Shown here one piece after another: positions 4,867 to 54,780 of a DNA stretch of 64,000 bases. Within the stretch, counting starts at the first letter, position 1. Every line of letters begins with the position of its first letter. This DNA comes from a virus, in the IMG/VR virus record IMGVR_UViG_3300031555_001876, one strand, 5' to 3'. Below the pieces are notes generated by a model, which was not told the DNA's origin, did no database searches, and was given only the letters and a program-made list of their open reading frames with translations. The position numbers and the translations under genes are program-made.

Positions 4867-4876
4867 GAAGTGAATA

Positions 4877-7800
4877 ATGAGTAGTAAATATGTTGACCCC
4901 ACTGCTATTATGCAAGTTATTGGGTGCGTTTATAATAATCCACGATTGTTAGATTATACAGATAAATATACAATAACAGATGATGATTTTCCTGATACAT
5001 TTCATAAAACAGTGTTTGGATGTATATATAAACTTTATGAATTGGGTTCAAAGAAAATTACTTTGGAAAATATATCCGACTTTTTGGATACTCGTCCTAA
5101 AAGTCAAGCAATATATAAACAACAAAAAGGCGAAGAATGGTTATTAAAAGTAAGTGAAAATGCAAATCAATTAACTTTTGATTATTATTATGGACGAATG
5201 AAAAAAATGTCTTTACTTCGTGCATATGATAATTATGGTGTTGATGTGAGCGATATTTATGACCCTGATAACATTCTTGATACTAAAAAGAAACAATTGC
5301 AAGAAGATAATCTTGATAATTCTACATTAGATGAAATTGCTAATAAAGTCGATATGAAAATTGATTCTATTAGACTTCAATATGTAGATAATGTTTTTGG
5401 TAAAGCCCAACAAGTTGGTAGCGGCATTTTTGATTTAATTGAGCAATATAAGCAGAATCCAGAAGTAGGTATTCCTCTTTATGGTCCATTGATTAATACA
5501 GTTACTCGAGGTGCTAGACTAAAGAAATTTTATTTGCGGTCGGCGGCAACCGGAGTGGGGAAAGCAATCCCTAATAACACTTTAATTCCTACTCCTGCTG
5601 GATGGAGAAAAGTTGGAGATATTAGACCCGGAGATAAATTGTTTGGGCAAGATGGAAAAGAAACTATTGTTCTTCAAATTCATCCTCAGCCGCAGGAGAA
5701 AGAAATTTGGAAAGTAACTTTTGCAGATGGAAGAATTGCGGAATGCTGTGGAGAGCATTTATGGGAATATTGTTATAAATCTCATAGGGGATATAGTTAT
5801 AGAGTTGAAGATATTCAAACTATTTATAATAGAACACTTACATTAAAAAATGGTTTAAAAAACAGTGATGGAAAAGGATATAGATTTCATATTAAACTAA
5901 ATAATCCTGTTGAATATGAAGAAAAGCAATATTATCTTCCTCCTTATGTAATGGGTGCTCTACTTGGTGATGGCAGTTTTAGATATAATAATACCAATAA
6001 ATCTCTTGAATTTTCTTCGGCAGATGAACAAATTCCTTCTTTAATTGCTATTGCTCTTGGAAGCAACTGGCAAAAAGGAAAAGTCCATACCATTTATGCT
6101 AAAAAAAGTTCAGAAAATAATTATAGTTGGACTTTTAGAGATAAAGAAAATCCTACTCATCCTTTTTGGGTAGAAGAAATGCTAAAAGATTATCCTAAAC
6201 TTTGGAATGTTAAATCTGAAGATAAGTTTATTCCTAAAGATTATCTACAAGGTTCCATATTTCAAAGACAGTGTTTATTGCAAGGACTTATGGACACAGA
6301 TGGTTCAGTTGATGAAAAAGGTAGAACTTCTTTTACAACTATTAGTCCTCAATTAAGAGATGATTTTATTGAACTTTGTAGAAGTCTTGGTTTTATCGCT
6401 ACTTATTCGACAGACTTACGAGATAAATATTCAACAGGTGAATGTTATACAATTCATATTCAAGCCCCTAAAGAAATGAAGAAACATTTCTTTAGATTAC
6501 AAAGAAAACATAATATTATTAAAAATTATTTAGCAAATAATAAGCGAGAAGAACATAAAGACCATTTAGCAATTATAGATATTGAAAAAACTACTGAATT
6601 ATCAGATATGACTTGTTTTACAGTAGATAATGATAATCATCTGTTTTTAATGAATGATTTTATTGTTACACACAATACTCGTTCAATGATAGCCGATGCT
6701 TGTTATATTGCTTGCGAAAAAATTTATGATGAAATGTTTGGATGGATTAAAACTGGTATAAGTGAACCTGTTTTATATATTGCTACCGAGCAAGATTTGG
6801 AAGAAATCCAAACAATGATGTTAGCATTTGTTTCCAATGTTAATGAAGAGCATATTGTTAATGGACAATATGAAGATGGTGAATACGATAGAGTTAAAGA
6901 AGCAGCGAAAATATTAACTAATTCTAAACTTTATCTTGAAGAATTACCAGACTTTTCTCTTCAAGATGTTGAAAATATTATTAAAAAGAATATTCGTGAC
7001 AATGATACTAAATATATATTCAACCCGAAAAGGGTGTTGGGATAATGAAACACTTTTCCACTAATCAGTGGGGTCTGCGAACTGGAAAATTTTGGAAATT
7101 CGCAGGCTAACGGGGAACCCTAAACGAGAAATCGCAAGGGAATCCCGTGGGAAATTTGGACGAAAATAGTCAATAACTTTTTGACTTCTTTCATACTAAA
7201 ATGAAAGAAGGCGATAAAATGGGTATTATTTATTGTTTTACTAATAAAATAAATAATAAAAAATATATTGGATAGACTATTAATCCTAAATAGCGATATA
7301 ATGCTCATAAAAGCAATTATCAAAATAGTAATAATTAGGAATATAATTCTTTGCTTCATAGAGCATTTAGAAAATATGGCTTTGAAAATTTTGATTATGA
7401 AATCTTATCCAAAGATATAGATGATATAGATTTATTAAATAAATTAGAAATATTTTATATCACTAAATTTAATACAAAAGCCCCAAATGGTTATAATGTT
7501 GAGAGTGGAGGAAAAAATGCTCCTAAACCTAAAACATTAGAACATAAGAAAAAAGAAATTTGGGGTTAGGCTAAATTAACAGAAGAAGAAGTTATTGAAC
7601 TGCGAAAAGCATATAAAGCCAAGAAAAGTCCAACTGAAATTTATAATAAGAAATATAAAAATAGATTACATTATAATTCTTTTTTAAATATTTGGTCTGG
7701 ACGTAGATATGGATTAATTATGCCAGAAGTTTTTGAAAAAGGACGTCATACTAAATTAACTGCTGATATAGTAAAAAAAATAAGAAAAGATAAAGAAACT

Positions 7801-13913: not shown

Positions 13914-14477
13914 ATGCCTTTAACATCACAACAAATTGAAAATGAAATAAAAAAGTTATAGACAAAAAATCTTGAATTAGAATAGGAGATAAATTGTTTT
14001 CGTAATAAAAATTATACTGATAATTGGAAATTAAATTAGAAAATAGAAGGGCACGAAACAATTCTTAATGAATTACGAAGTAATTTAGATCCAATTCTTT
14101 CTCAACAAATTTATGATTCATATTTTTTATCAAATTAGTTAACAGATATTGTAGAAAATAAAAATAAAATTAATGAGTTATATCAATTAGCAAATTATAA
14201 TATGAGTAAAATTGATTCATTAGAAACTTCTATTGATTCATTAAAAGAATCAATAGTTAAAATTGGTATAGATGCTGAAACAATGAGTAAAGCACTCAAA
14301 GAAGTTAGTGAAAAACTCAAAGAGATGGCTCCGGCCGGGGGCAGTCAAGAAAATCGTGTTCCCGAACCTGAAAGTGATTTAGAAATTTTTGACCAAATTG
14401 AACCAAATAAAAATGATGCTGAATTTTTAGAATGGCTCAATAATGCAAATAATTATTTTTATAGAGAAGAATGGTGA
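13914..14477 (+). CDS. coiled-coil hypothetical protein; 4 in-frame TAGs
   Basis: Track ORF 14202..14477 extends upstream in frame to ATG 13914 through TAGs. Confidence 0.35.
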
Positions 14478-14493
14478 GAGGAGGAAGTAGACC

Positions 14494-15666
14494 TTGGTCT
14501 TAACTAAAAAGCAAGAAGAAGGATTAAAGATAGCAGTAGAACGTTATCGTAATAATGAGCCATATACTTGTATAGCAGGTTATGCAGGAACAGGTAAGTC
14601 GACATTAGTTAAATTTATTATTTCCGCCTTGAACGTTTATCCAGAAGATGTATGTTATGTAGCATATACCGGTAAAGCAGCGAAAGTTCTCGCAGAAAAA
14701 GGTTGCCCTAATGCGATGACGGCGCATAGATTATTATATAAATCTATTCCAAGAGACGATGGAACTTTTTATCATAAGATTAAAAGACCATTAGATTATC
14801 CTTATAAATTAATTGTAGTCGACGAAATTTCTATGCTTCCAAAAGAAATGTGGGATTTACTTTTATCTCATAATATCTATGTTATTTGCCTTGGCGACCC
14901 ATTTCAGTTGCCTCCAATAGGAGAAGATAATGGAGTTCTTTATGATGCTCACATCTTCCTTGATGAAATTATGCGGCAGGCGCAAGAAAGTGAAATTATT
15001 CGTTTAACTATGGATATTCGTGAAGGTAAACCTTTACAATTATTTAGAGGTAACGAGGTTCAAGTAGTTAATAAAATTGATTTAGTTGATGGAATGTATA
15101 CTTGGGCTGACTAGATTATTGTAGGTAAAAATGATACTCGTAGAAATATTAACGCGTGTATGCGAAAAATGCTTTTTGGTATTGAAGATGGCGCGCCCAT
15201 TGTAGGAGATAAAGTAATCTGTTTGCGCAATGACTGGGAACACCCTAGTGAAGCAGGCGATATTGCTGTTAATGGCACTATTGGATATTTAACTAGTATT
15301 CATTATAATAAATATCATCCTTATCTTCATCCTCAATTAATTGCTGATTTTTTACCTGATACTTATAGTATTGAAGATGTAGAAAGAAGTCCTTATGATT
15401 TATTTTTTAGAAATGTAAATATGGATTATAAACTTCTTACTACTGGTGAAGAAACAGTTAATAATAAAAATTTTAAATTCTTTCCAAAGCAACATAGACC
15501 TCAAGTATATGATTATGGATATTGTATTACTTGTCATAAAGCGCAAGGTAGCGAATATGATAAAGTTTTAGTTATTGAAGAATTTTTAAAAGGTAATGAA
15601 CACGCTCGTTGGCTATATACTGCTGCTACAAGAGCAAAAGAAAAACTTGTTATTGTGAGGAAATAA
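14494..15666 (+). CDS. Dda/RecD-like SF1 DNA helicase; one in-frame TAG at 15115
   Basis: Walker A GYAGTGKST and Walker B LIVVDEISML are present. The C-terminal motifs YCITCHKAQGSEYD and AATRAKEKL are present. Track ORFs 14494..15114 and 15160..15666 share a frame and are joined by the TAG. Confidence 0.6.
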
Positions 15667-15876: not shown

Positions 15877-18800
15877 ATGTATTTTAATTGTCATAATCAT
15901 ACAATGTATTCGAATCTTCGATTACTTGACTGTATTAATCAACCAAAAGATTTAATTGATAAAGCAATTGAATTAGGTCTTTCTGGAATTGCTATTACTG
16001 ACCACGAATGTTTGTCAGCGCATATGGAAGTAAATCAATATGCTAAAAAACTTTTAGTAACTAATCCTGATTTTACTATTGCATTAGGTAATGAAATTTA
16101 TTTAACTGATGATAGAGAATCAGGACAAAAGTATTATCACTTTATTTTAATCGCAAAAGACGCTTTAGGGCATAAAGCATTAAGAGAATTAAGTTCTATT
16201 GCTTGGTATAATTCTTATGTTGATAGACGTATGGAAAGAGTTCCAACAACAAAAGAAGAACTTGCCGAAGTTGTTCTTAAATATAAAGGACATTTAATTG
16301 CGACAACTGCTTGTATTGGCGGTGAATTAGGCACCAATATTCTTTATATGCTTGATTGTGATAGAGTTGGTGATACTATTAATAGAATGACTTATCATAA
16401 TAATATTATTGAATTTATTCAATATTGTAAAAATCTATTTGATGATGATTTCTATATTGAATGCGCTCCTTCAAGCACGGCAGACCAAATCGCAGTTAAT
16501 AAAATGCTATTAAAAATTGCCTCTGTTTTTGATGTTAAATTAGTTCCTGGAACTGACTCTCATTATTTAACTGCAAAAGAAAGACCAATTCATAAAGCAT
16601 ATCTTAATTCAAAAAATGGTGAAAGAGAAGTTGATGATTTTTATGAATTTTCTCATTTGATGGATTCTAATGAATTATATAATTTATTAAAATTATCATA
16701 TGAACAGTCTGTTATTAATGAAATCATATCTAATTCATTAGAACTTCAAAAGAAAATTACTTTTTACTCTCTTGAACGCAAACAAATTATTCCAAAAGTA
16801 GAAGTTTTAGATTATCAAAAAACCTTATCTCATTTTGGTATTAATAATAATTTGCGAGATGAATTAGATAATAGTTGGCCTACTATTAAAAGTCTTTTAT
16901 TATCCGATGATATCCAAGAACGGTATTGGATTAATGAATGTTTAAATGGATTAATTGATAAGGATTTGTGGAAATATGAGTATATTTCAAGAATAGAAAC
17001 AGAAGCAGACATTATAAAATATATTGGTTCTGGTCTAAATGATTGCCTTTTTGCTTATTTTAATACCTTTAAACATTATATTGATTTATTTTGGGAGTGC
17101 GGTAGTATTGTAGGACCAGGGCGAGGAAGTGCTACCGGTTTTTTATCAAATTATTTACTTGGTATTACGCAACTTGACCCCATCCGTTGGAATCTCCCTT
17201 GGTGGCGTTTTCTGAATCGGGAGAGATTAGAACTACCGGATATCGATATAGACCTTGCACCATCCAAGCGCCCTTCTATATTCAACGCCATTCGCGAAGA
17301 GCGTGGTGAGTTTGGTCTCATTCAAGTAGCCACCTTCGGAACAGAAGGAACAAAATCAGCAGTCTTAACTGCTTGCCGTGGTTATAGAAGTGAAGATTAT
17401 CCAGATGGTATCGACGTAGACCAAGCGCAATATATGTCCTCTTTAATTCCGCAAGAACGTGGTTTCTTATGGGATATTAAAGATGTTGTATATGGTAATC
17501 CAGAGAAAGACCGCAAACCTGTTACGACTTTTATTAGAGAAGTAAATAGATTTCCAGGTTTATTAGATATTATTATGTCTATTGCAGGTCTTGTAAATAA
17601 GCGCTCTTCTCACGCTTCTGGTGTTATTTTATATGGCGAAGACCCATATGATACAGCGGCTTTTATGAGAACTCCTAGTGGTGATTTAATTACTTGCTAT
17701 GACCTACATAAAGCAGAAGCCGCAGGAGATACTAAATATGATTTCCTAGTAACAGAAGTTTCAGATAAAATTATTAAATGTATTGAATTACTTATTGAAG
17801 ATGGAGTTATTAAACAAGACAGTTTAAGAAATACTTATAATAGTATTCTTCATCCAGAAGTATTAGATACAACTGATAAAAAGATTTGGGAACATCTTGC
17901 CGCAGGTGATGTTCTTGATGTATTCCAGTTTAGTGGTGGTGTCGGTTTAGCAATTGCTAAAAAACTAAAACCGCAAGACCCTCTAGAAATGACTGCGGCG
18001 AATGCTATGATGAGACTGATGAGTGAAAAAGGCGTTGAATCACAGCAAGATAGATATGCTAGAATTCAACGAGAAGGTATTCATATTTTTGATTGGGAAA
18101 TGAAACAAAAAGGTTTACCAGAAAATATGATTGCTAAATTACATAAACATTGTGATAAGTATTTTGGTTGTTGTCCTATCCAAGAGCAGATGATGGAAAT
18201 ACTTATGGATGTTGCTGGATTTACTCTTGGAGAAGCAAACTCTGCTCGAAAGATTGTTGCTAAAAAGCAAATGGATAAAATTCCACAATTAAAAGAACAG
18301 GTATTTAGTAGATTTGATAATCATAATATTGCTGATTATTTTTGGAAATTAGCAGTAGCACCGCAATTAGGGTAAATGGCTTGCCCTTACACACCTAACC
18401 TGTTATCGCAGGGGTAAATTAATAACCCTTTTTGGGGCTAAACTTATTAATTTGCTAACGGGGAAAGTTAAGTATTAATGAAAGAATCATTAATATATAC
18501 CAATCCCGTGATAAATGTCTTAATGGTCCTTTAATACATCTTAAAGGAGAAATGAAATGGTATTTTATATTTATAAATATACTAATTTAATTAATAATAA
18601 AAAATATGTTGGTTAGACTAATAATTTTCAAAGAAGAGTCAACGAACATAAAAGTTGTTCTTTTAATCCCAATAGTGTAAATTATGATGATAAAATTCAT
18701 CAAGCAATTCGTAAATATGGATATAGCAACTTTAAAATTGAAATTCTTGAAATTATAACAGAGGCTAAAACATATGATTTAGTGAATGAACGTGAAAGTT

Positions 18801-20876
18801 ATTGGATTAAAGAAGAGCAAAGTTTATTGACTCAATGGGGATATAATGTTTTAGAAGGTGGAAATAATAGTTGGAGGTCTTTTTTAACACAAGAAGATGT
18901 TGAAAAGATAAAAATGATGATTAAAGATGAAATACCTTATTCAAAAATACAAGAATATTATCCCATATCTAAAACTTTTATTTCAGGCATCAATTCTGGA
19001 AAATATTTTTATAATGAAAAAGAAATATATCCTTTATGCAGATATCGAATTTCTAATGATATCTATGATGCTTTAATTGAAGATTTAATAAAACCTGAAC
19101 TGACTTTTAAAGAACTAGCACAACGATATAATTTAGGAGAATCAACTATTAAAAAATTTAATTATGGCACATTACAAAAAGGATATTATAAAGGTGAATA
19201 TCCTATTAGAAAAATAACTCCACAAAAATATAAAAGACAATTGATAAAAGAATATTTATTAAACACTAATCTCCTATATAAAGATATTGTAAAATTAACT
19301 GGAACGTCTGATGAAACAGTGCGCAGAGTTAATATAGGTGCAATTGATAAAGATGAAAATTTAAAATATCCATTAAGATAAATATTGTAGAGACTATTCT
19401 GGGTGAGACCGGAAGTAGGATTACTATTGATACGTAGTTCGAAATGGTGTGCTATAATTTGTATATTATAGTAAAAGATAGTCCAGTCCTCATAGAAATA
19501 TGAGAATAACTGATGCATTTAGTTTGAATCATTCTCTTCCTTATTCATTTGTTGGTATTCAAACTATTTATTTAGCATATAAATTTAATCCTATTTATTG
19601 GAATACTGCTTGCTTAATTGTTAATAGTGGCGCTACTGATGAAGAAGCAGGCGGTCAAACTGATTATGGTAAAATAGCAAAAGCAATTGGAGATATTAGA
19701 AGTGCGGGTATTAAAGTCAGTCTTGCTAATATTAACCGATCTAAATTTGGTTTCGCTCCTGACGTAGATAAGAATCAAATACTTTTCGGTCTCAAAGGAT
19801 TGCTAAATGTTGGCGATGAAATTGTCCAAAAGACAATTGAAAATAGACCTTATTTTTCTGTAAAAGACTATGTAAATAAAGTTAAACCAGGTAAACAAGC
19901 AATGATTTCCCTTATTAAGGGAGGGGCTTTTGATGAATTAGAACCTGATAGAAAATTTACAATGGCTTGGTATATCTGGGATAATTGTGATAAAAAGAAA
20001 AGAATTACTCTTCAAAATATGCCAGGATTAATCAAATATGATTTAATTCCAAAAGACACAGAAGATAGAATTACTGCTTATCGAGTATATGAATTTAATC
20101 GTTATTTGAAAGCAACTTGTAAATTCACTCCTACTGATTATAAAGTAGATGAACGTGCTTATAACTTTTTGATAAAAATTTCTTGTGATGATATGATTCA
20201 CGGAGATATGTTATTAGGAGTTAAACAATGGGATAAAATTTATCAATCTTATATGGATATCTTCCGTGCGTGGATTAATGAAAATAAAAACCAAATTCTT
20301 AATGATTTAAATAGTAAAATCTTTAAAGAAGATTGGGATAAATATGCGTCCGGCAATATCTCTTCTTGGGAAATGGAAGCATTATGTTTCTATTATCACG
20401 AACACGAATTATCTAATGTAAATAGATGGAAGTATGGATTCGCTGATTTCTTTAAACTTCCAGTAGAACCAGTAATTGCTTCTACGTTTGAGCGCGGAGG
20501 TAAAGATATTAATATTCTTAAATTAGATAAAATTTATGGAACTTGTATTGCGAAGAATAAAAATAAATCGACAGTTACTTTACTAACTCCTACTGGCGTT
20601 GTCGAAGTAAAGTTTAGAAAAGAATATTTTAGTTTGTTTGATAAAAGAATTAGTGAACGTGGAGAAGATGGCGCAAAACATATTGTTGAAAAATCTTGGT
20701 TTGACCGAGGTAGTATGATTGTTGTTATGGGATTCCGTTCTGGTGATAATTTTATTACAAAGAAATATGCGAAAGATTCTGGTCATCAATTATATAAAAT
20801 TGATAAAGTAGAAGAAAATGGCGATTTAATTTTGCGCTCTACAAGATATCAAGGAGAGGAAGAAGAAGATGGCTAA
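15877..20876 (+). CDS. DNA polymerase III alpha-like replicative polymerase (DnaE/PolC family, N-terminal PHP domain), split gene: exon 1 15877..18373, group I intron 18374..19512, exon 2 19513..20876
   Basis: A PHP motif (HNHTMYSNL..ITDHE) is present. Splicing joins ..APQLG-Y-AFSLNHSLPYSFVGIQTIYLAYKF.., which matches the conserved DnaE YAFNKSH..Y.LKAHYP segment. Exon 1 ends in U at 18373. The intron's terminal G is at 19512. Confidence 0.65.
18374..19512 (+). mobile_element. group I intron C in the polymerase gene, carrying GIY-YIG HEG 18557..19381
   Basis: The same conserved core as A and B is present (GCTAACGGGGAA..AATCCCGTG; AAGATAGTCCAG; P9 TCATAGAAATATGA). The exon phase is restored on removal. 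Confidence 0.65.
18557..19381 (+). CDS. GIY-YIG homing endonuclease (intron C ORF); one in-frame TAG
   Basis: Sequence MVFYIYKYTNLINNKKYVG(TAG)TNNFQRRVNEHKS is present. The gene is continuous with track ORF 18782..19381. Confidence 0.65.
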
Positions 20877-21601: not shown

Positions 21602-21649
21602 ACACAAAATATAGTGTGGCACTACTTATTGCCATACTATATTTGTGAT
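21602..21649 (+). promoter_or_regulatory. two NrdR-box-like palindromes upstream of nrdD
   Basis: ACACAAAATATAGTGT lies at 21602-17 and ATACTATATTTGTGAT at 21634-49, spaced 32 bp start to start. They resemble the NrdR operator consensus acaCwAtATaTwGtgt in tandem arrangement. Confidence 0.35.
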
Positions 21650-21665
21650 GGAGGATACTAAATAT

Positions 21666-23921
21666 ATGGTTTATATAATTAAACGCAATGGAGCAGTTGT
21701 TCCATTTGACAAAGATAGAATAGTTATTGCAATTAATAAGGCATTTATTGATGTAGACGGCACACTATATGAAACTGATACCGCACACGATATTGCTGAT
21801 GAAATTTATGAGAAAGCCGCTTTAAGTGACATTAACTATACGGTTGAAGAAATTCAAGATTTAGTAGAAGATTACTTAATGCGTAGTGAACGAAAAGACG
21901 TAGCCAAATCTTATATACGATATAGATATAAAAAAGAAGTTGCAAGAGATTACACCGATGATTTTATTACAGCGATTGGTGAAAAAATTAAAGGTGAAAA
22001 AATTGAAAACCAAAACGCAAATGTTGATGAACACTCTTTTGGTGGAAGATATGGTGAAGCGGCTGATTTATTAATGAAGAAATATGCTCTCGATTTTTGC
22101 GTAAGTAAAATGGCAAGAGATAATCATAATAACAATGAAGTTTATATTCACGACTTATCTGCTTATGCTGTTGGTATGCATAACTGTTTAAGTATTCCTT
22201 TTGATAAATTATTGGCAGAAGGATTTAATACTCGTCAAACTGATGTGCGTCCCGCAAATTCTGTAAATACTGCTTTCCAATTAGTAGCAGTTATTTTCCA
22301 ATTACAATCTTTACAGCAATTTGGTGGTGTATCTGCTACTCATTTAGATTGGACTATGGTTCCATATGTAAGAAAAAGTTTTTGGAAACATTTTTATGAT
22401 GCTTTTAAATATCATTTTGATGTTCCACATCAATATACAGGTGGACTTGCTTATAATGATTATTTAAAAAAAGTTGAAGAATGGATTATAACTCAAAAAA
22501 ATCAAAATTCTCCAATTGAAAATGGTAATGTTAAAGAATATAGTTCTTTATATAATCAAGCAATGAAAATGACCGAAAAAGAAACTGTTCAAGCAGTTGA
22601 AGGTATGTATCATAATTTAAATACTCTTCAATCCAGAAGCGGTAATCAATTACCTTTTACTTCTATTAATTATGGTACTTGTACTAGTCTAGAAGGAAGA
22701 ATGGTAATTAAAGCCTTGTTAGAAGGTTCTATTAAGGGTGTGGGCAAATTACATAAAACTTCTATTTTCCCTTGCGGCATTTTCCAATGTATGAAGGGCG
22801 TTAATAGAAAGCCAGGAGACCCAAATTATGACTTATTCAAATTAGCATTGCGTTCAACTGCCCAACGACTTTACCCTAATTACGCAAACGTAGATTGGTC
22901 AGGAAACGCAGGATATGATATCAATGACCCCACTACATACTTTAGCACAATGGGTTGCCGCACTGCGAACGGTTGGGATGTCAATGGACTAGGTCAGCAA
23001 AAAGATGGGCGCGGTAATATCTGCCCTGTCACTATCATCCTTCCTACGATTGCAATGGAATCTCGAAAGATATATGAATCAGGAACAAGTGGAAGCGCTT
23101 CATTAGAAGATGCATTTTTCTACTTATTAAATAAAAAAATTCACGAAGCAAAAGATATGTTAATTGAACGCTTTGAATGGATTTGTTCTCAAAATCCTGC
23201 TTCTGCTAAATTTATGTACGAAAATGGTTTAATGGCAGGTTACGATGGTAAAGATATTCGCAGCGCTCTCAAACACGGAACTTTGGTAATAGGTCAATTA
23301 GGTCTTGCAGAATGCTTACAATTATTAATTGGTACTGACCACACTTCACTTGAAGGAATGGAATTAGCAAAAAAGATTGAAAACTTTTTTAAAATTCATT
23401 GTGCTGAATTTAAAGAGAAATATAAATTAAATTTCGGTGTTTATTATACTCCTGCCGAGAATCTTTGCTATACTGCTTTAAAGAAATTCCGTGAAAAACA
23501 TGGAATTATTCCAAATGTAAGTGATAGAGAATTTTTTACTAATTCTATGCACGTTCCTGTATGGAAAGAAATGAGTCCTTTTGAAAAAATTGATATTGAA
23601 TCCCAACTTACTGGCTATTCTAGTGCTGGTTGTATCACTTACGTTGAACTTGATAGCGGTGTTAAAAATAATTTAGAAGCGCTTGAAACCTTAGTTAATT
23701 ATGCTATGGATAAAGATATCCCATATTTTGCGATAAACGTTCCCAATGACACTTGTTTGTCTTGTGGATATACTGATGAATTTAATGATGCCTGCCCTGA
23801 ATGCGGCAGTCAGGAAATTCAACAATTACGTCGTGTTACTGGCTATTTAACGGGTAATTATAAAACAGCATTTAATAAAGGTAAGCAAGCAGAAGTTGAA
23901 GAAAGAGTTAAACATAAATAA
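21666..23921 (+). CDS. nrdD: anaerobic ribonucleoside-triphosphate reductase (class III RNR)
   Basis: An N-terminal ATP-cone (MVYIIKRNGAVVPFDKDRIVIAINKA) is present. The C-terminus has a Zn-ribbon CLSCG..CPECG and the glycyl-radical motif RRVTGYLTG. There is no in-frame TAG. RBS GGAGG precedes 21666; the track start 21645 is the alternative. Confidence 0.75.
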   Translation: MVYIIKRNGAVVPFDKDRIVIAINKAFIDVDGTLYETDTAHDIADEIYEKAALSDINYTVEEIQDLVEDYLMRSERKDVAKSYIRYRYKKEVARDYTDDFITAIGEKIKGEKIENQNANVDEHSFGGRYGEAADLLMKKYALDFCVSKMARDNHNNNEVYIHDLSAYAVGMHNCLSIPFDKLLAEGFNTRQTDVRPANSVNTAFQLVAVIFQLQSLQQFGGVSATHLDWTMVPYVRKSFWKHFYDAFKYHFDVPHQYTGGLAYNDYLKKVEEWIITQKNQNSPIENGNVKEYSSLYNQAMKMTEKETVQAVEGMYHNLNTLQSRSGNQLPFTSINYGTCTSLEGRMVIKALLEGSIKGVGKLHKTSIFPCGIFQCMKGVNRKPGDPNYDLFKLALRSTAQRLYPNYANVDWSGNAGYDINDPTTYFSTMGCRTANGWDVNGLGQQKDGRGNICPVTIILPTIAMESRKIYESGTSGSASLEDAFFYLLNKKIHEAKDMLIERFEWICSQNPASAKFMYENGLMAGYDGKDIRSALKHGTLVIGQLGLAECLQLLIGTDHTSLEGMELAKKIENFFKIHCAEFKEKYKLNFGVYYTPAENLCYTALKKFREKHGIIPNVSDREFFTNSMHVPVWKEMSPFEKIDIESQLTGYSSAGCITYVELDSGVKNNLEALETLVNYAMDKDIPYFAINVPNDTCLSCGYTDEFNDACPECGSQEIQQLRRVTGYLTGNYKTAFNKGKQAEVEERVKHK

Positions 23922-23950
23922 GGTTGTCCAAATTTGGACAACCTTTATAA
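23919..23950 (+). terminator. rho-independent terminator after nrdD
   Basis: Stem AGGTTGTCC / GGACAACCT followed by TTTAT. Confidence 0.5.
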
Positions 23951-23995: not shown

Positions 23996-24932
23996 ATGGC
24001 TTTAATATATAAAATTACAAATAAAATTAATAATCAATCATATATTGGAAAAACGATTCAACCTTTAAAGGTAAGATATCAAGAACATCATCAAGACTGT
24101 GCTAAATATTTAAAAAATCAAAAAACTTCTATTCCATTATATAATGCAGTTAATATTTATGGCTGGGATAATTTCACAATAGAAATTATTGAAGATAATA
24201 TCCCTAATAAGTTAATTAATGAAAAAGAATAGTATTATATAAAATATTTTGATACTTATAATAATGGTTATAATGCTACTCTAGGTGGAGATGGTGGAAG
24301 AACTTGTTCAAAATTAAATGAAAGTACAGTCCAATTAATTATTCAAATATTATTAGATGAAAATAATTTAAATTCATTAGAACAAATTGCAAAATAGTTT
24401 AATATTAGTACTACAATTATATCTTCTATAAATCAAGGGAAAGCCTGGTATAATGAAACATTAAATTATCCATTAAGAAAATATAATGTAACAGGATTAA
24501 GCATTAATAAATAGACATATAATAAAATTATTAATGATATAAAGAATACAAATTTATCTTTAAATAGTATTTCTAAAAAATATAACTTAACAGAAAATTA
24601 GATATGTGCAATAAATAATGGATACGAATGTTATAATGGAAAACATCCATATTATACTCCTATTTACGAAGGGCCTTTTCCAATTAGAAGTACAAATAAA
24701 AAAATTGATATAACTAATAATATTCAAAATATATTATATGATATTATTTTTACAAAAGAATCTATGTCTAAAATTGGAGCAAAATATAATCTGCAAGGAA
24801 ATACTTTAACATACATAGCCAATGGGAAAAGAAGAAAAGAACTAACTAAAGATTTTATAACTCCATTACGACATAATATAGAAATAAATAAAAAAATTTA
24901 TAAAAAAATATATTCAATTAAAGAAGGTGATT
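23996..24932 (+). CDS. free-standing GIY-YIG homing endonuclease between nrdD and nrdG; 4 in-frame TAGs
   Basis: Sequence MALIYKITNKINNQSYIGKT..YGWDNFTIEII is present, with C-terminal HTH-like repeats. The gene has its own promoter-like TATATAAT and an RBS. Confidence 0.55.
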
Positions 24933-24934
24933 AA

Positions 24935-25434
24935 ATGCGATACTCTCGAATAATATATAATGATTTTACTGCTGCACCAGGAGTAAGTTTAACTTTTTTT
25001 GTTCAAGGGTGTCCTTGACACCAATTAGATGTAAAGGTTGCCATAATCCAGAACTCCAAGATTTCGGAGGAGGCAAGGATGTTGATGGTATTGTAATAAA
25101 TGATATTATTCAAGGTATTTCAGCCAATGGTATTTAGCGCAATCTTTGTATTATGGGTGGCGAACCTCTTTGTGATGAAAACAAGTTTTTAACTTATATG
25201 ATAATTGAAAATGTTAAAAAGGTATATCCAGATGTGAAAGTTTATATTTGGACTGGCTATGTTTTAGAAAACTTAGTTAAAAGTAATGATGATAGAATTA
25301 AAAGAATCTTAGATTTGACTGATACTATTATTGATGGTCCTTATATAGAAGAAGAGCGAGATATTACTCTCCATATGCGCGGCAGTAAAAATCAAAGAAT
25401 AATCAATTTAATTGACTTACGAAATAAATTATGA
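24935..25434 (+). CDS. nrdG: anaerobic RNR activating enzyme (radical SAM), reading frame interrupted at 25016-25020
   Basis: The N-terminus ..GVSLTFFVQGCP is followed by TGA. The +1 frame continues IRCKGCHNPELQDF..GGEPL..IWTGY..GSKNQ, matching NrdG throughout. An intact CxxxCxxC is obtained only by skipping 5 nt between CCU and CCA. Confidence 0.55.
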
Positions 25435-32352: not shown

Positions 32353-35300
32353 TTAATAATAACTTTCAGTATCCCATACAGGGATTATTTTATTTAAATA
32401 ACTTGCAGTATAAGTAATTTCTTTAGCATATATATCATCTTCAACAATAGAGTCACTTAATACGGCTTCACCAGTTAATAACATTAATGACCAATTGTTA
32501 TTAACATATTGACCCCACCAGGTTTCTTCAGCAACTAGTTTAGTAGCATCTTCCTTATCGATGTGATATATATTCATAGTATATACTTCACCATTTTGGC
32601 TATTAGGTACTCCATTCGCAATATCATATTGAGAAATAATATCATTTAATTCATCTATCTTACTAATATAATAAACAGACGAATTATTTTCATCTTTCTC
32701 TAATGAGCCTACTTCAACATTGTCTTTACGAATAAATTGTAAAGTCTTTACACTTTGAGGGGTGCCAACAGGACCTAAAATAGAACCTTGCTTTATCCAT
32801 TTTCCATTTATATACATAAATACCCAGCCACGGCAAGGGTCATCTACTCGAGTTACAGTATGAATATAAATATCATTTTCACTTAAATCTCTATCTTCTA
32901 AAATATTAGGCTAATAAGAGTTTGTGTCTGCGTTCCAAGATAAATCTTTATCTTTAAGGTCTGAAGCAGTAAAAATATGAATTGCTTTTGGTAAATAGAA
33001 ACTAAATAATTGAACATCTTGATTTCTAATTGATTCCTCTATTTGAATCTCTTCTCTATTATTTATTTCTATTTTTTCACTTCTAAAGTAAGGAATATTT
33101 GGAATATGAAAAATAAATTTTTCTCGATATCCATTATCTTTTTCTCCTATTAATAAATTAGTTGATAATTCAACTTTTGAACGTGTATATTTCTAAATAT
33201 TATCTACTGAATCTTTATAAAGTTCAAAAGCAGATTTTTCTTGAATTTCAACTTCTGGAGAAGGTGCTGTTATAATTCCTATATATCTTACACTTAATAA
33301 ATTTTCTTTTTTACTCTTAAATTGATATAATCTACCTGAAGGCTTATTAATATACATATCTCCAGGTAATACGTCCTATTCTAATAAAGCAAAATGATAT
33401 CTTAAATTAGATAATAAATAAGTATATTTTTGAATATATTTTATTATATCATAAGAATAAATAAGATATTCTCTTTCAACACTTTCTTCTAATAAATTAT
33501 CTTCATTATGCAATTTAATATAAATCCATCTTAAATCAATAACTGAATCATAAGAATTATATAAATTTAATAAAGTAGATAAATTTGAATTCCACATATA
33601 ACCTTTATAATACTAATAACAATATTCATACTATTTATCAGTATTTAAAGTATTAAAATATTCTTTACTATAAAAATTATTTTTATTCCAACAATCATTT
33701 AAGAGATTTAAATCATTAATTGTATTAGGTCTATAATTAGAGATAAAATTTTCTAATGGTTCTTTCATTTGATATAATTCTGAATAAATTGCATCACAAT
33801 AGTCTTCTAATTTATCTTTATATTCATATTTTAAAGTATTTTTATTAAAACCATATAAGCCCCAAGGAATTTTATTTTCTAAATCATCTACTTCAGAAGT
33901 ATTACTTAAAATATTAAGCAAACTTTTATCTTTGTAATAATAATTTTTGATAGAAGGATAATTATCAATATTATTATTTATATAATCAGTAAATAATCTT
34001 ACACTAAATATTTTATCAGTATCATCTACTGTCATAATTTCAACAGAACCATTACCACCATCAAAATATAAAATAGTTCCTTTAACTTCGTTAATAGGAC
34101 ATAATTTTGCATATACTCTAATAAAATTATCTAATATTTCGACTCTAAAGAAATCTTCTTCATAAGGATTGCTCATTGTAAGAATTGCAGAGTGAGAAGT
34201 TGTTATTCCTTCTACTGGAATGTCAACATAGAACTAATAACTTTCAGTAGCATAATTAGGATTAACTTCCCAATTTCCAAGAGTATCAATACTATATTTT
34301 CCCGCTGGTTCTATCCCTTCGCCAATCTATACTGCAATCATTCCATCACGAGTATTAACTGTTTCATCTTGATTTAAATCAGCATACATTAATTCGACTT
34401 CATCTTCTATGCCAACTAAAGATTCTGTTATAATTCTTCCATCTTCAGAATCAATCTTTCCATCACCGTTAACATCACCACGCATACGACCGGCCGGAAT
34501 GGTAATTTCCTAATTCTCACTATTATTACTTATATCCGCCGCGCTTAATGCGCCGCGCAGTAAACTAGTTAAATCAACTATTTTATTAATATCTTCACTA
34601 CTACAACTATAAATAATATCATCAAAAGACCAAGGATGTTCTGCAGTATAACTAAATGGAAATTCATTTAAATCGCCTTGCCCAAATAAAGGACCAGAGA
34701 AATACTTTACTTCTCTTGGTAACTAAAAATCTAAAATAGGTTTAGTTAAAGTTGCTTCAACTAATTTACCATCAATTTCTCTAACTTCACCACTTACTAA
34801 CAAATCAACATCTGGGTCTCTAGTAGGCCCTAGAACTGTATTATAAATATTTTCAATTCTCTATGCTCTTTGCTAATAAAATTTAATCTGTGGTTTATCA
34901 GGGTTAGTTAAATCATAGGTCACATAAGGATCTCCATCTTCAATATCAATAGTCTAATGGAAAACTTGAATTCTTGGAGTTTGACCTGTAACACAAGCAA
35001 TTAAACGATAACCAAAGCCAAAATTCTCTTCAGAATAAATATCAGAAGTTTCTTTTAAACTTTCACCAGGTATCTATCTAAATCTAATAATAGTACCATC
35101 AGGATTAATCCAGTTACCATCTTTATCACAAGGAACATTTTGATTTAAACTTGGAGAATAAATAGAGTATGTTCCATCTCCATTAGGATTTACTTCTCCA
35201 ACATCTTCAAAATTAATAAAAACATAAACATTTTCTTCCGAATTGGGAAAGTCAGGAGATACTTCTTTACTATCTTCTACATAAATCTTCTACCAAATAG

Positions 35301-35568
35301 AGTTAGTATAAGATTTACCACAATTCATTAAGTCAATATTTAAATTCTATTCATAAGTAGAAGGCTCAACAATTGTTTCACCATTTTCATTTTTATATAT
35401 TTTATTTAATTCAGCAATATCGCCATAACTAATAAAAACATAATCGCCAACATTAATAGGAGAATACCAACGAGCCTATAAGTCTTTTAATAAATCTTCA
35501 GAGCGATTCGAGAAGATTTGAGAAATTCTAAAATCTTGACCTTTCTATCCACCATAAAAACTATACAT
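32353..35568 (-). CDS. large tail fiber/receptor-binding-like protein (1071 aa) with an internal dockerin-like double Ca-binding repeat; ~17 in-frame TAGs
   Basis: The minus frame is continuous from ATG 35568 (RBS GAGGGGGGAAG) to TAA 32353 with TAG as sense. It joins track ORFs 32353..32817, 33376..33597 and 33631..34176. Motifs GDVNGDGKIDSEDGRII..ADLNQDETVNTRDGMI are encoded around plus 34330-34500. Confidence 0.5.
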
Positions 35569-36272
35569 TAGATACTTCCCCCCTCAAATGTTGTAAACAT
35601 AAAATCTATAATAACATTTTTCAAATCCTGTAAATAATCATTTTCAACATAAACACCCGCTAAACCTTTTATATATCTTGCTCTTGCGGCATTATACTCT
35701 GTTAAATATTTGTTATGGATTACTTCATATTGTTCCCAAAATTTTTCATTTGTTATTGTAGAATTTGGTGCCTCTTGTTCTAATTTTAACTATCTATAAG
35801 CCTTATCAAAATCAGTTTTTGCTTTTTCCATTTGACGAACTCCATCACTAACATAGTTATTAGTTTGATAAACATCAATAGTATACATTTTAGGACGTGC
35901 AAAAACCAATCTTTCCACTTTTATATCATCATCCAATTCATAAATACCAGTACGACCAACAATAATCTCTTGCCCAGAATATTTAACAACTTTACCCTCT
36001 TCATCAACATCAATCTATCCATCTATATAAAATTTTGTTCCAGGAGGGGCTTGAATACCTAATTTATAAATACTCTAACTAAAATTTTTAAATACATTTT
36101 CAGTATAAATATTAATTTTTTTTTCTTCATAATCTTTAGATAAAGATGAAATTATATAGTTATTATTATTAGGATTTGAGGCTTCATTAGAGGGTTTAAT
36201 GTCTTTAGTACTGGAAATTAATCCACCGGTTCCGCCATAATCTTCTAAATTATATATAATTTGGCCTATCAT
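35568..36272 (-). CDS. hypothetical virion protein (234 aa); 3 in-frame TAGs
   Basis: RBS GGAGGT precedes ATG 36272. The TAA stop 35568-70 overlaps the next ATG (TAATG). Confidence 0.4.
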
Positions 36273-46105: not shown

Positions 46106-49100
46106 TTAGATTTTACTTAAATTAAGATATTGAGAAGCGTTATTAGAAAGATTAGACAATGCTTCTTGAATTTCATATTGGTCAACAACATTCGGGAATT
46201 CAGCATTAATATGAACATTTTGTTCAATTGCTTTTTCATCGAATATTGGTAATTTAGTGCTACCTAACATACTTCTTAATTGATAGTCGGTATTAGCAGT
46301 CATCATAGAAATTTGATTATCAATAGAACGAGATACTTTTACTGCGTCTAATATATTAGCAGTATCTTGTTTATTTAATACAAGTTCTTTTTCGTCTAAT
46401 AAAGCCAAACGACCTTCAGAACCCCAAGAACCAGTGTATCCACCTGTATCAAATTTTTTAAGTTTATCAAGTTTGTCTGCAATAACTTCATCATTATAAG
46501 AGCCACCATCAGCAATATGTTTAACAACTTCATTTGCAGTAGGATTTCCTTGAGACGCCTGAATTAAAACATTTTCTAAATCTTTATTGCTAATATATCC
46601 ACTCTTTTCAGGATCTCTTTCTGCTCTATCTGCCATTAACTATTTATAATCATCAGACTATAAATAATTAATATCATTATACAATGCTTCAGTAACATCA
46701 CGGCTAATATCTCCACTGCTTTTTTTAGCGCCACCGCTGCCAGAAGTAATAGTATTATTAATATAAGCCTCATTTTTAGCAAGTTCTTCATCAGTACGTT
46801 TACTGTATTTAGCCTGCCATTCTTCAACCATTCCAATAGCCTAGGAGACATAAGACATTAATACATCGACCAATTCAGATATTTCATCACATAATTGTTG
46901 TACATAAGTTTCTAAAGAACCTAATGTGCCTTCAGTATCTGCGCCAAAGGTTTCCCAACTAGTTCCTGCAACATTCATTGCCTATTCAACGACACCTTGC
47001 CAATCTTTATAATTAACCATTAATTCAGAAATAGTTAAATTAGAATTTTCCAAGAAATGATTATAAGCATCTTCATAATCATAAATATCAGTCATTTGAC
47101 CATAAAGAGTATCGTGGAAAAGAATACCACTTTCTTCTACACCTTTGTTCAATTCATCTAATAAATAGCGTTGACGTTCAGTGTAATATTCTTGTAATGC
47201 GATTAATTGGTCTTGATAGTCAGCCGCATTTTTATCTAAATCCATTAAAGCATCTTTATACTCAATTTGATTTTCAATCAATTGTTGAGATACATCATCG
47301 ATATAATCTTTAGCCAATTGGTCTAATTCAAATAAAGCATCTTCATATTTCTATGTAGCATCTTCAATAGATTCTTCATCAGCGTCATATGCATAAGTCC
47401 AATTACCTGCGGCGTCGCGCACCAAGCGCATAGAGGTCTTACTATTTTGCGCTTCCATTAAAGCAATTTCAGCCAATTGTAAATCATATCTCTTTTGGAG
47501 AATATCTAAATCAAATTGACTCATATCTACGCCTGCTTTTTGCAGTTCGTAAATCTATTGCTGAATATCTCTTAATTTAGACTTTGCTAATAAATCATTT
47601 TCATCTTGGATAGCAGAATTTAATTGACGATTTAATTTATTTAATTCATAAAGTTTTGTAGCATCGTCTAAATATTCATCTTGAATAGTTTTAGCCTATT
47701 CATAATTTTGCTGGAATAATTCTAATGTAGAGAATGGACTTAAAGCGTCACTCATTGTATTGACTGCTAATTCCATTCGCATTTCAAATAATTCAGCCGC
47801 AGCATTTAAAGTTTCTTCCCAAGAGCCAAGAAATTCTTCAGAAGCACTTTCTAATTCGTGCTTTAATTCTTCAACTTGGTTTTCCCAGAATTTAACAGAT
47901 GTCTCGTCGTTGTCCGCCGCTCGGTTAGCCAAGGCCTCTTGCGCTTGTTTAGTGGCGGCCGCAAGCCCATCCATTTGCTGCTTTAAGATACCCATTTTAT
48001 TAACCATAGTTTCGACTCTCATAGTACCAATGCGGACTTTTAAAGTCTAATCAAGCATTGTTCTACCTGACAAGTCGATTATGTTATTAAAATGGTCTAA
48101 CATAGATACATATTTATCTAGCCTATCAGTTTGAATATCAATTTCTTCAAGTGCTAATTCAAGAACATTCTAAACTAATTCTTCCATCTCTTTACGAAGT
48201 TCTAGAATATCTTTATTAACATCAATTAAATCACTTTGATATTCTAATATCTATTCATCAAACATTTGCTCATATCCCGGGTATTGCGCTTTCGCCGCAT
48301 TTAATTCATCAATGCCTTGGCGCAATGTAGCACCCTTTTCAAACAACTAAAGCATTTCTTGCTCTTGATACTGGAAACCTTCAAGCATTGCTTCAATTGT
48401 TTGTTTATTTCCGTGAGCCTGTAATAATAATTTTTCTTGATAATAATTTAATCTTTCAATCTGATAATCAATCTGTTTTACACGCCAATCAATTCTATTG
48501 GTAATATCTTCTAACGCTTTTTCAGCCTATTCACGTTCCTTATCAGCAATTGAAGCAACATTATCATCAATTTTAGATTGTAATTCAGTAGCCTAATCTA
48601 AATCAAAACTTATATCTCTTAACCAAGCCTCTGCTTTATCTTCACTGCCGGTTTCCTGCAGAATTTCTTGGTATTTATCTTCCATTTGTGCATATAAATC
48701 ACTTAAGTTAGCAATTTCACCATCATCAGTTAACTTAATTTCAAATTCTGGATGTTTAGCATTAAATTCTTTAACTTTTTCCTTTAGAAGTTTCTTCCAA
48801 GTTTTAATTTGGTCTTCGAGGATTTTTTGCTCTTCTTCAAGAAGTTCAATTTCTTCTTTGATGTATTTACTTGCGTCTTCTGGATTTAGGCCTTCACGTT
48901 GAGCCTCCAAGCGTTTGCGTTTACTTTCGCTTGTTGACATGCGCTTATCTTGAAGTTCATCATAAGCAGAACCTGAGGAACCTCCTCCACCGCCACCTGA
49001 ACCTTGATATGGGTTGGTTACTGGAGTACTATTTCCTGGACCAGTAAGTATTTCCATATTAGATTTAGCATCACCAGGAATAAGTCCACTAAAGCCTAAA

Positions 49101-54742: not shown

Positions 54743-54780
54743 ATAGATATTACTCCTTTCACTCTTTTATTTTTATATAT

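Follow-up and report, generated by a model that had tools for sequence, protein, structure and literature searches.

How can a gene be read to its end when a stop codon interrupts it inside the cysteine motif of its product? The question is raised by nrdG in the IMG/VR virus record IMGVR_UViG_3300031555_001876, of which one strand of 64,000 nucleotides (nt), hereafter the window, was analysed. An earlier note on this DNA, made from the letters alone, had described the break, and its sequence and coordinates matched exactly on re-reading. The nrdG ATG lies at 24935, immediately after the stop of the upstream gene, and the frame-0 codons at the break are GGG (25007-09), TGT (25010-12), CCT (25013-15) and TGA (25016-18). 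The parts of the gene are as follows.

24935..25015, plus strand: nrdG segment 1, 27 codons, MRYSRIIYNDFTAAPGVSLTFFVQGCP; its last codon is the proposed take-off codon CCT (25013-15).
25008..25022, plus strand: inverted repeat GGTGTC (25008-13)-CTT-GACACC (25017-22); the 5′ arm holds bases of the Gly, Cys and Pro codons, the 3′ arm holds bases of the gap and the landing codon.
25016..25020, plus strand: coding gap TGACA; its TGA (25016-18), followed by C, would occupy the A site at take-off.
25021..25023, plus strand: landing codon CCA, where re-pairing by peptidyl-tRNA-Pro is proposed, with no second decoding.
25024..25434, plus strand: nrdG segment 2, 136 codons, IRCKGCHNPELQ...NKL, with its TGA stop at 25432-34 and a sense TAG (Gln) at 25135-37.

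The inverted repeat, with the stop right after the take-off codon, was confirmed. Directly 3′ of the landing CCA stands ATT (25024-26), and the extra bases number eight in total (TGACA plus CCA). With 8 nt extra, segment 2 is in the +2 (equivalently −1) frame relative to segment 1, and not in +1 as the note had it; it likewise holds 136 codons before its stop and not the 140 residues given there, and its in-frame TAG had been overlooked. When CCT is joined to ATT the peptide reads GCPIRCKGCHN. The joined NrdG of 163 amino acids (aa), a full-length radical-SAM activase of class III ribonucleotide reductase, matches Pfam Fer4_12 end to end (residues 15-154, E=5e-34), and the traits of the NrdG class (Fer4_12/radical-SAM, CxxxCxxC as GCPIRCKGC) appeared only once the halves were joined over the gap. 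The best explanation, which we regard as probable from the sequences compared below, is that the element would be decoded by a hop of Pro-tRNA over the stop (a stop-hop).

An exact-protein look-up with the 93-aa C-terminal open reading frame (ORF) matched 23 contigs, ten of which were displayed. Nine of these ten carried the identical interrupted sequence. Each was from a separate JGI or ENA sample (JGI 3300024268, 3300024272 and 3300018878 and ENA ERZ27248370 among the samples), several assemblers had been used, and the contigs matched the window at 99.8-100% identity along 1.5-3.3 kb. Because nine independent assemblies carry the identical sequence, the interruption is not an error. The sequencing error that the earlier note had listed as an alternative, and an assembly or sequencing artefact at large, had nothing in their favour beyond what one expects beforehand of frame breaks in metagenomic DNA; both are already refuted by these nine contigs and by diverged lineages, which keep the element in varied form. 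That the break is real, conserved and tied to the endonuclease is certain.

The tenth contig (L081) revealed what the locus may have looked like before, and for this comparison the neighbours of nrdG are needed.

21645..23921, plus strand: nrdD, anaerobic ribonucleotide reductase, intact, 758 aa, TAA stop at 23919-21 (ORF list).
23922..23943, plus strand: perfect 8-bp hairpin GGTTGTCC-AAATTT-GGACAACC, directly 3′ of the nrdD stop (read from sequence).
23996..24934, plus strand: free-standing GIY-YIG homing endonuclease gene (HEG), 312 aa, four in-frame TAG (Pfam GIY-YIG, E=3e-7).

Over nrdD, nrdG and the downstream genes L081 was about 90% identical to the window. It is without the 1-kb HEG between nrdD and nrdG, and its nrdD stop overlaps the nrdG ATG; in the window nrdG has its ribosome-binding site in the last codons of the HEG (GAAGGTGAT). 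The hairpin at 23922-23943, missing in L081, looks terminator-like and is situated at the left end of the inserted DNA. The nrdG of L081 is uninterrupted (target sequence …TTTGTGTAGGGCTGCCCCATTAGATGTAAAGGTTGCCATAATCC…) and reads GGC TGC CCC ATT AGA TGT, or GCPIRC, the same as the predicted hop product. The earlier note had proposed take-off from CCU, landing on CCA and skipping of TGACA to give GCPIRCKGCHN; L081 encodes exactly this peptide without a break, and the proposal thereby gained comparative support. The ancestral state, HEG-less and uninterrupted, is known, as far as sequence can tell, from L081. Between the window and L081, 23 codons differ 3′ of the break with two amino acid changes (V/I), and 17 of the 27 codons 5′ of it differ.

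The same arrangement recurred in diverged phages. More than 2600 homologues of the HEG were found, with 120 listed, and its proteins of about 312 aa were conserved over their full length. For homologues at 78, 68, 66, 62, 57, 57, 54 and 45% identity the position was in every case either the nrdD/nrdG junction or immediately 5′ of nrdG, and beside each of these eight nrdG was broken at the same Pro codon. Five further interrupted lineages came from IMG/VR pattern scans, giving 15 interrupted loci in about 14 diverged lineages. In nrdD orthologues at related loci the Pfam domains ATP-cone, NRDD and Gly_radical were present. Comparison of orthologous nrdG in related phages, to which the earlier note had pointed, thus found some 14 lineages that keep the stop-flanking Pro codons and in which a hop restores CxxxCxxC each time. 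The layout is CCN-stop-(0-3 nt)-CCN at one Pro codon, with the following gaps.

Gap TGACA (5 nt): the window, L091 and L094.
Gap TGACG (5 nt): L117.
Gap TAAA (4 nt): L095.
Gap TAACAG (6 nt): L103-108.
Gap TAA (3 nt): L109-112, L113-116, L118, L187/189, L188, L190, L191 and L193.

Take-off and landing codons were cognate (CCN/CCN) in all 15 loci, as the pairs CCT/CCT, CCT/CCA, CCA/CCA, CCG/CCG, CCG/CCT and CCG/CCA, the third base of the landing codon varying in a wobble-like manner. A single tRNA-Pro isoacceptor (UGG) able to read every CCN codon would suit such mixtures of CCU, CCA and CCG. A stop directly followed the take-off codon in 15/15 loci; it was TGA or TAA and never TAG, which is sense in the window as well as in every other locus with in-frame TAG. 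The base after the stop was C in 14 of the 15. Joining the take-off codon to the codon after landing gave GCPxxCxxCHN in every locus (15/15), and both halves were open throughout (15/15; 27 codons upstream, 130-153 downstream). An intact nrdD stood beside the interrupted nrdG, and decay of nrdG or nrdD was seen in no lineage.

Linkage to a HEG was found in 14 of the 15 loci, in three endonuclease contexts. Besides the family of the window, L191 had a GIY-YIG/NUMOD1 enzyme and L188 an unassigned ORF with an HNH_3 enzyme; for the ORF upstream of L188 nrdG a Vsr-like endonuclease was considered and rejected as a guess without Pfam support. The remaining locus, L193, retained CCG TAA CCA with nrdD and nrdG adjacent, both halves open and no HEG, which matches what would be expected of an element retained after loss of the HEG. 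The interruption was absent from 80 of 80 other phage nrdG loci fetched by NrdG protein, some of which had unrelated GIY-YIG genes nearby. Among 49 loci fetched by the NrdD of L193, one was interrupted (L193 itself), 38 had the uninterrupted motif and ten had no motif match; follow-up of these ten found uninterrupted nrdG in L231 and L234 and none near nrdD in the other eight. The window region had no DNA match in the 'phages' GenBank collection, and the DNA pattern of the window-type junction, whether exact or degenerate, had none in viral_contigs. One scan of metagenome_contigs gave six chance matches only, none in nrdG. Viral scans for 5-nt-gap variants and for 3-nt-gap variants of the CFN/CYN type (TGY-TWY-AAY) found nothing, patterns with 4-nt and 6-nt gaps lying outside these scans.

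The variation in gap length is informative about decoding. Gaps of 3, 4, 5 and 6 nt require frame changes of 0, +1, +2 and 0, respectively, and because they span all three frames no single frameshift or readthrough fits. A hop at the stop from one CCN to the next CCN appears to be the only rule common to the variants, and it would restore Cx3Cx2C exactly each time. The 3-nt and 6-nt variants also bear on a two-piece NrdG, in which the 27-aa peptide and a separately initiated C-terminal protein would assemble, as in the endonuclease-split nrdA of Aeh1 or T4 gene 39/60. This phage does have an endonuclease-split gene, that of DNA polymerase III alpha, and a GTG at 25009 lies in the downstream frame in 5-nt-gap variants. 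However, the in-frame variants have no start codon after the stop, so separate initiation is excluded for them. The first cluster cysteine would moreover be on the 27-aa peptide, with the split inside the CxxxCxxC loop. We consider a two-piece protein very improbable.

For the stop-hop we propose the following course. The ribosome would translate the 27 codons of nrdG and come to hold peptidyl-tRNA-Pro on CCU (25013-15) with UGA in the A site. A C-terminal Pro slows termination, and a stop followed by C is weak; termination would be slow here, giving the P-site tRNA time to unpair, and tRNA-Pro is slip-prone. The peptidyl-tRNA would unpair, the mRNA would slip by 8 nt and the tRNA would re-pair at CCA (25021-23). 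Decoding would restart at AUU and yield full-length NrdG with the iron-sulfur motif CPIRCKGC. NrdG acts catalytically, so a modest yield could suffice. The readings predict different junction peptides: the tryptic peptide IIYNDFTAAPGVSLTFFVQGCPIR (...FFVQGCPIR) for the hop, ...FFVQGCPLTPIR for a −1 shift, ...FFVQGCPTPIR for a +2 shift and ...FFVQGCP for termination.

Why should such an element exist at all? The HEG of the window has the traits of a free-standing GIY-YIG HEG, as judged from its catalytic domain, its presence or absence relative to L081 and its mosaic flanks. Its protein had no close relative in viral_contigs, and alignment of the family against genome_contigs returned catalytic-domain relatives only, at loci none of which had the nrdG motif. 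The first 81 nt of the window nrdG were 70% identical to L081 and 80-85% identical to the cassettes of other phages, while the next 300 nt were 94% identical to L081 and 57-74% to the other cassettes. Since segment 1 is closer to other cassettes than to L081, it travels with the HEG. In L109 and L110 the HEG, the 27 codons and the spacer were near-identical (1 mismatch in about 1.1 kb), and identity dropped to 60-90% from about 10 nt 3′ of the landing codon. Between L113 and L114/L116 identity was 100% from a point shortly 5′ of the HEG as far as the element, with 2-4% divergence on either side. Recombination breakpoints are located at the element, which is the cassette boundary. This pattern would be expected if the HEG cuts uninterrupted nrdG at the motif or close to it and repair proceeds from a cassette-bearing genome.

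The best reading of the HEG and its bypassed spacer is that they form a mobile cassette which would protect the HEG's own genome. The 8 extra bases would interrupt nrdG where it is most conserved, at what is most likely the site that the GIY-YIG endonuclease recognizes or cleaves. A genome bearing the HEG would then escape its own enzyme and keep NrdG, and HEG, first 27 nrdG codons and spacer would home together into related phages. From analogy and the breakpoint maps we infer, on good grounds, that the interruption confers immunity to the endonuclease.

Mobility of the cassette is equally the basis of another explanation, in which the selfish cassette homes and kills nrdG, leaving an inactivating scar, and the downstream halves are intact only through recent invasion. 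Clearly the cassette moves, and the downstream half is the recipient genome's own. Since each recipient contributes that half, its being intact is by itself weak evidence of function. The window clade is also nearly clonal and gives no power to measure selection after insertion, and the palindromic spacers (GGTGTC/GACACC, GGCTG/CAGCC) resemble fold-back repair scars. However, among cassettes the 27 cassette-linked codons showed pS of 0.35-0.85 and pN of 0.09-0.2; by this comparison they are under protein-level constraint, with synonymous sites nearing saturation. A scar also does not account for the landing CC found in 15/15 loci with the stop always directly after take-off, despite differing spacer lengths and sequences, nor for the lack of decay of either nrdG half or of nrdD in any lineage, nor for L193, which retains the element and an open gene without a HEG. 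A scar is therefore unlikely in our judgement, and so is the plain pseudogene that the earlier note had named as an alternative.

Several points weigh against the stop-hop. Support for it is purely comparative and comes from sequences. Synthetic stop-hops in E. coli are inefficient, at about 1%. The nascent chain has only 27 aa at take-off, so a nascent-peptide signal of the gene 60 type cannot act alike; these 27 residues are the conserved N-terminus of NrdG, in which a separate signal is indistinguishable from constraint on the enzyme. Intact downstream halves could partly reflect recent homing and not long selection. A hairpin is a hallmark of gene 60, but that of the window (−8.2 kcal/mol) did not stand out from shuffles (z = −0.53). 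Aligning all the variants gave no consensus structure or covariation, and ARAGORN found no tRNA gene, hence no suppressor tRNA, in the 64-kb window. In L119-121, finally, nrdG carries a stop-less 6-nt sense insertion at the same place, encoding GC-DRNPH-C (Cx5Cx2C). Upstream of these genes (at about 2480-2530) is an endonuclease from the family of the window's HEG, at 42% identity. Their NrdG may tolerate the two extra residues, which weakens the argument that only exact restoration works, and the insertion may serve the same immunity role.

L119-121 speak for conventional recoding combined with a tolerated insertion, that is, a −1/+2 shift for the 5-nt gaps, a +1 shift for the 4-nt gap and readthrough for the 3-nt and 6-nt gaps, with Cx5-6Cx2C products that still bind the cluster. 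The +2, +1 and readthrough readings would all yield C-P-x-P-x-x-C, and GGG UGU CCU UGA C in the window resembles the shift site of prfB (CUU UGA C, preceded at a distance of 3 nt by a Shine-Dalgarno-like sequence). However, a single conserved element would require three mechanisms, CCU finds no good partner for re-pairing at −1 (UCC), +1 (CUU) or +2 (UUG), and readthrough of UAA is very inefficient in bacteria. Except in L119-121, every uninterrupted motif recovered was Cx3Cx2C (80/80 NrdG-fetched and 38/49 NrdD-fetched loci). Conventional recoding is in our opinion quite improbable, and a Pro-tRNA stop-hop is preferred.

The hairpin at the break, to which the earlier note had given weight, is present in the sequence; its folding energy, as stated above, is ordinary. 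Hairpins were predicted in all variants (−4.3 to −11.9 kcal/mol), the 3-nt gaps giving only weak stems. Those of the 5-nt and 6-nt gaps differ in sequence (GGUGUC/GACACC, GGUGUC/GACGCC with a G.U pair, GGCUG/CAGCC). The 3′ arm repeats the neighbouring Gly/Cys codons as their reverse complement, and the palindrome may therefore have arisen as a fold-back repair scar when the insertion originated.

The TAG within nrdG segment 2 is explained by recoding, for in this phage TAG is by all sequence indications a sense codon (Gln). When TAG was read as sense, long-ORF coverage of the window rose from 14.8k to 23.7k aa, and one ORF of 2886 aa, which reads like a tape-measure protein, contained 52 TAGs. 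TAG and CAA were exchanged at homologous NrdG positions among orthologues. TGA and TAA are still stops, and nrdG itself terminates at TGA. Sense TAG occurs throughout the window and is densest in the minus-strand late genes, for example 46106-54766 (minus strand) and 32353-35583 (minus strand). A crAss-like identity, suggested by TAG recoding and the giant ORF, was dropped, the ORF being tape-measure-like and Shine-Dalgarno sites strong. In the nrdG region of L037, L050, L051 and L191 an in-frame TGA takes the place of a codon that is Trp in others (PET*D for PETWD), and these phages appear to read TGA as Trp. L191, whose stop is TAA, unites this recoding with the CCG TAA CCT element.

Other mobile elements were found around these genes. 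In nrdD of L091 (628-1458), L095 (1673-2284) and L113 (1-213) the reading frame is broken by LAGLIDADG or HNH ORFs, which are probably introns, and in these phages the nrd locus is a hotspot of mobile elements. A formate/nitrite-transporter-like gene (Pfam Form_Nir_trans) lies between nrdD and the HEG in L103-L108 and after nrdG in L118. A membrane-protein-like ORF in L187 (1217-1798) is at the same position as the transporter gene. In L095 a PFL-like glycyl-radical gene follows nrdG. Elsewhere in the window, the following were recorded.

4874-7045, plus strand: DnaB-like helicase with an internal insert of about 400 aa (LAGLIDADG_3 and Hom_end, ending ...VTHN; Pfam), which looks like an intein with a homing endonuclease.
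13914-14477 and 14287-15666, both plus strand: long ORFs in different frames, overlapping by about 190 nt.
15877-18375 and 19458-20876, both plus strand: DNA polymerase III alpha in two ORFs, the first with PHP, NTPase and finger, the second with HHH_6.
18545-19381, plus strand: second GIY-YIG endonuclease gene, between the halves of DNA polymerase III alpha.

In the relative L094, DNA polymerase III alpha is a single gene of 1286 aa.

Efficient natural bypassing has long rested on few cases, namely T4 gene 60 and its homologues, the byps of yeast mitochondria and unproven candidates. The present finding would offer a second, unrelated pairing of an endonuclease with a bypass. We find it likely, with somewhat less assurance than the hop itself, that these are the first natural, evolutionarily maintained stop-hops: a family of minimal bypasses of 3-6 nt which would act as self-immunity spacers of several kinds of endonuclease in the iron-sulfur motif of NrdG. 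No earlier description of nrdG bypassing was found in the literature searched, most subscription journals lying outside the search. The roughly 14 natural variants in gap length, stop and codon pair form a comparative series for the minimal needs of a ribosome hop, and they suggest a general rule, that a selfish nuclease can shield its own genome by splitting the target with a spacer that the ribosome ignores. If this is true, endonuclease cassettes have resorted to bypassed spacers repeatedly and not just once in T4 gene 60, and peptidyl-tRNA-Pro stalled at a stop is a natural take-off state. There is also a lesson for annotation, as gene callers cut these nrdG genes to fragments of 87-104 aa or start them in the wrong frame.

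Among known systems are the synthetic stop-hops of E. coli, in which matched codons flanking a stop were found to work (Weiss et al. 1987, as reviewed in PMC5009743). There 9 nt are decoded as one amino acid independently of frame, exactly as would apply to the CCN TAA CCN variants, and +5 and +6 events have been reported. Those were laboratory constructs of low efficiency, whereas the nrdG element is natural, conserved and located in a required motif. Natural in-frame stop-hopping was given as unknown in that 2016 review by Atkins and colleagues (PMC5009743). The +1 frameshift of prfB (RF2) shares with the window a P-site codon followed by UGA C and a Shine-Dalgarno-like sequence (AAGGG in the window, 3 nt 5′ of the shift codon). 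However, a +1 slip of the P-site tRNA, which restores the frame in prfB, does not do so in the window, where +2/−1 is needed, nor is it general among the variants, some of which call for 0 and some for +1; re-pairing of CCU at +1 is impossible, and there is no autoregulatory logic.

In PMC2988022, nrdD and nrdG are described as known targets of seg and mob endonucleases, and MobC/SegH of T-even phages share the insertion site at the nrdD/nrdG junction (PMC2988022; Sandegren 2005 as cited elsewhere). They differ in that interruption or bypass of nrdG is undescribed in the accessible papers on those phages. The byps of Magnusiomyces capitatus mitochondria (PMC5009743) are likewise short non-coding inserts in protein genes that the ribosome skips, mobile and numerous; unlike the nrdG element they are 27-55 nt long and GC-rich, rely on relaxed decoding in mitochondria and on a codon that is unassigned, and have no link to an endonuclease.

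The earlier note had likened the break to T4 gene 60, and the likeness extends further than it had claimed, as the element lies beside a gene for a homing endonuclease and forms the border of co-moving DNA. In T4, the gene 60 bypass (Huang 1988) and MobA form a mobile cassette in which the insert blocks self-nicking, as demonstrated by experiment (Manning & Atkins 2022, preprint 10.1101/2022.08.31.505936, citing Bonocora 2011). Both systems have a take-off codon matched by the landing codon, a stop at take-off and a possible stem-loop with the take-off codon in it. The insert is in either case in a highly conserved coding stretch beside a free-standing homing endonuclease, the two moving together, and in some lineages the endonuclease has been replaced or lost while the insert stays (here L191, L188 and L193). 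The gap, however, is 50 nt in gene 60 (20 nt in one clade) and 3-6 nt here, and the codons are Gly GGA there and Pro CCN here. The nrdG element has no internal Shine-Dalgarno sequence, and a tunnel signal of the KKYK type is inapplicable to its 27-aa nascent chain. The host gene and enzyme are topoisomerase and HNH in T4, nrdG and GIY-YIG here, with no sequence homology. On these comparisons the nrdG element would work like T4 gene 60/MobA without being a member of that family.

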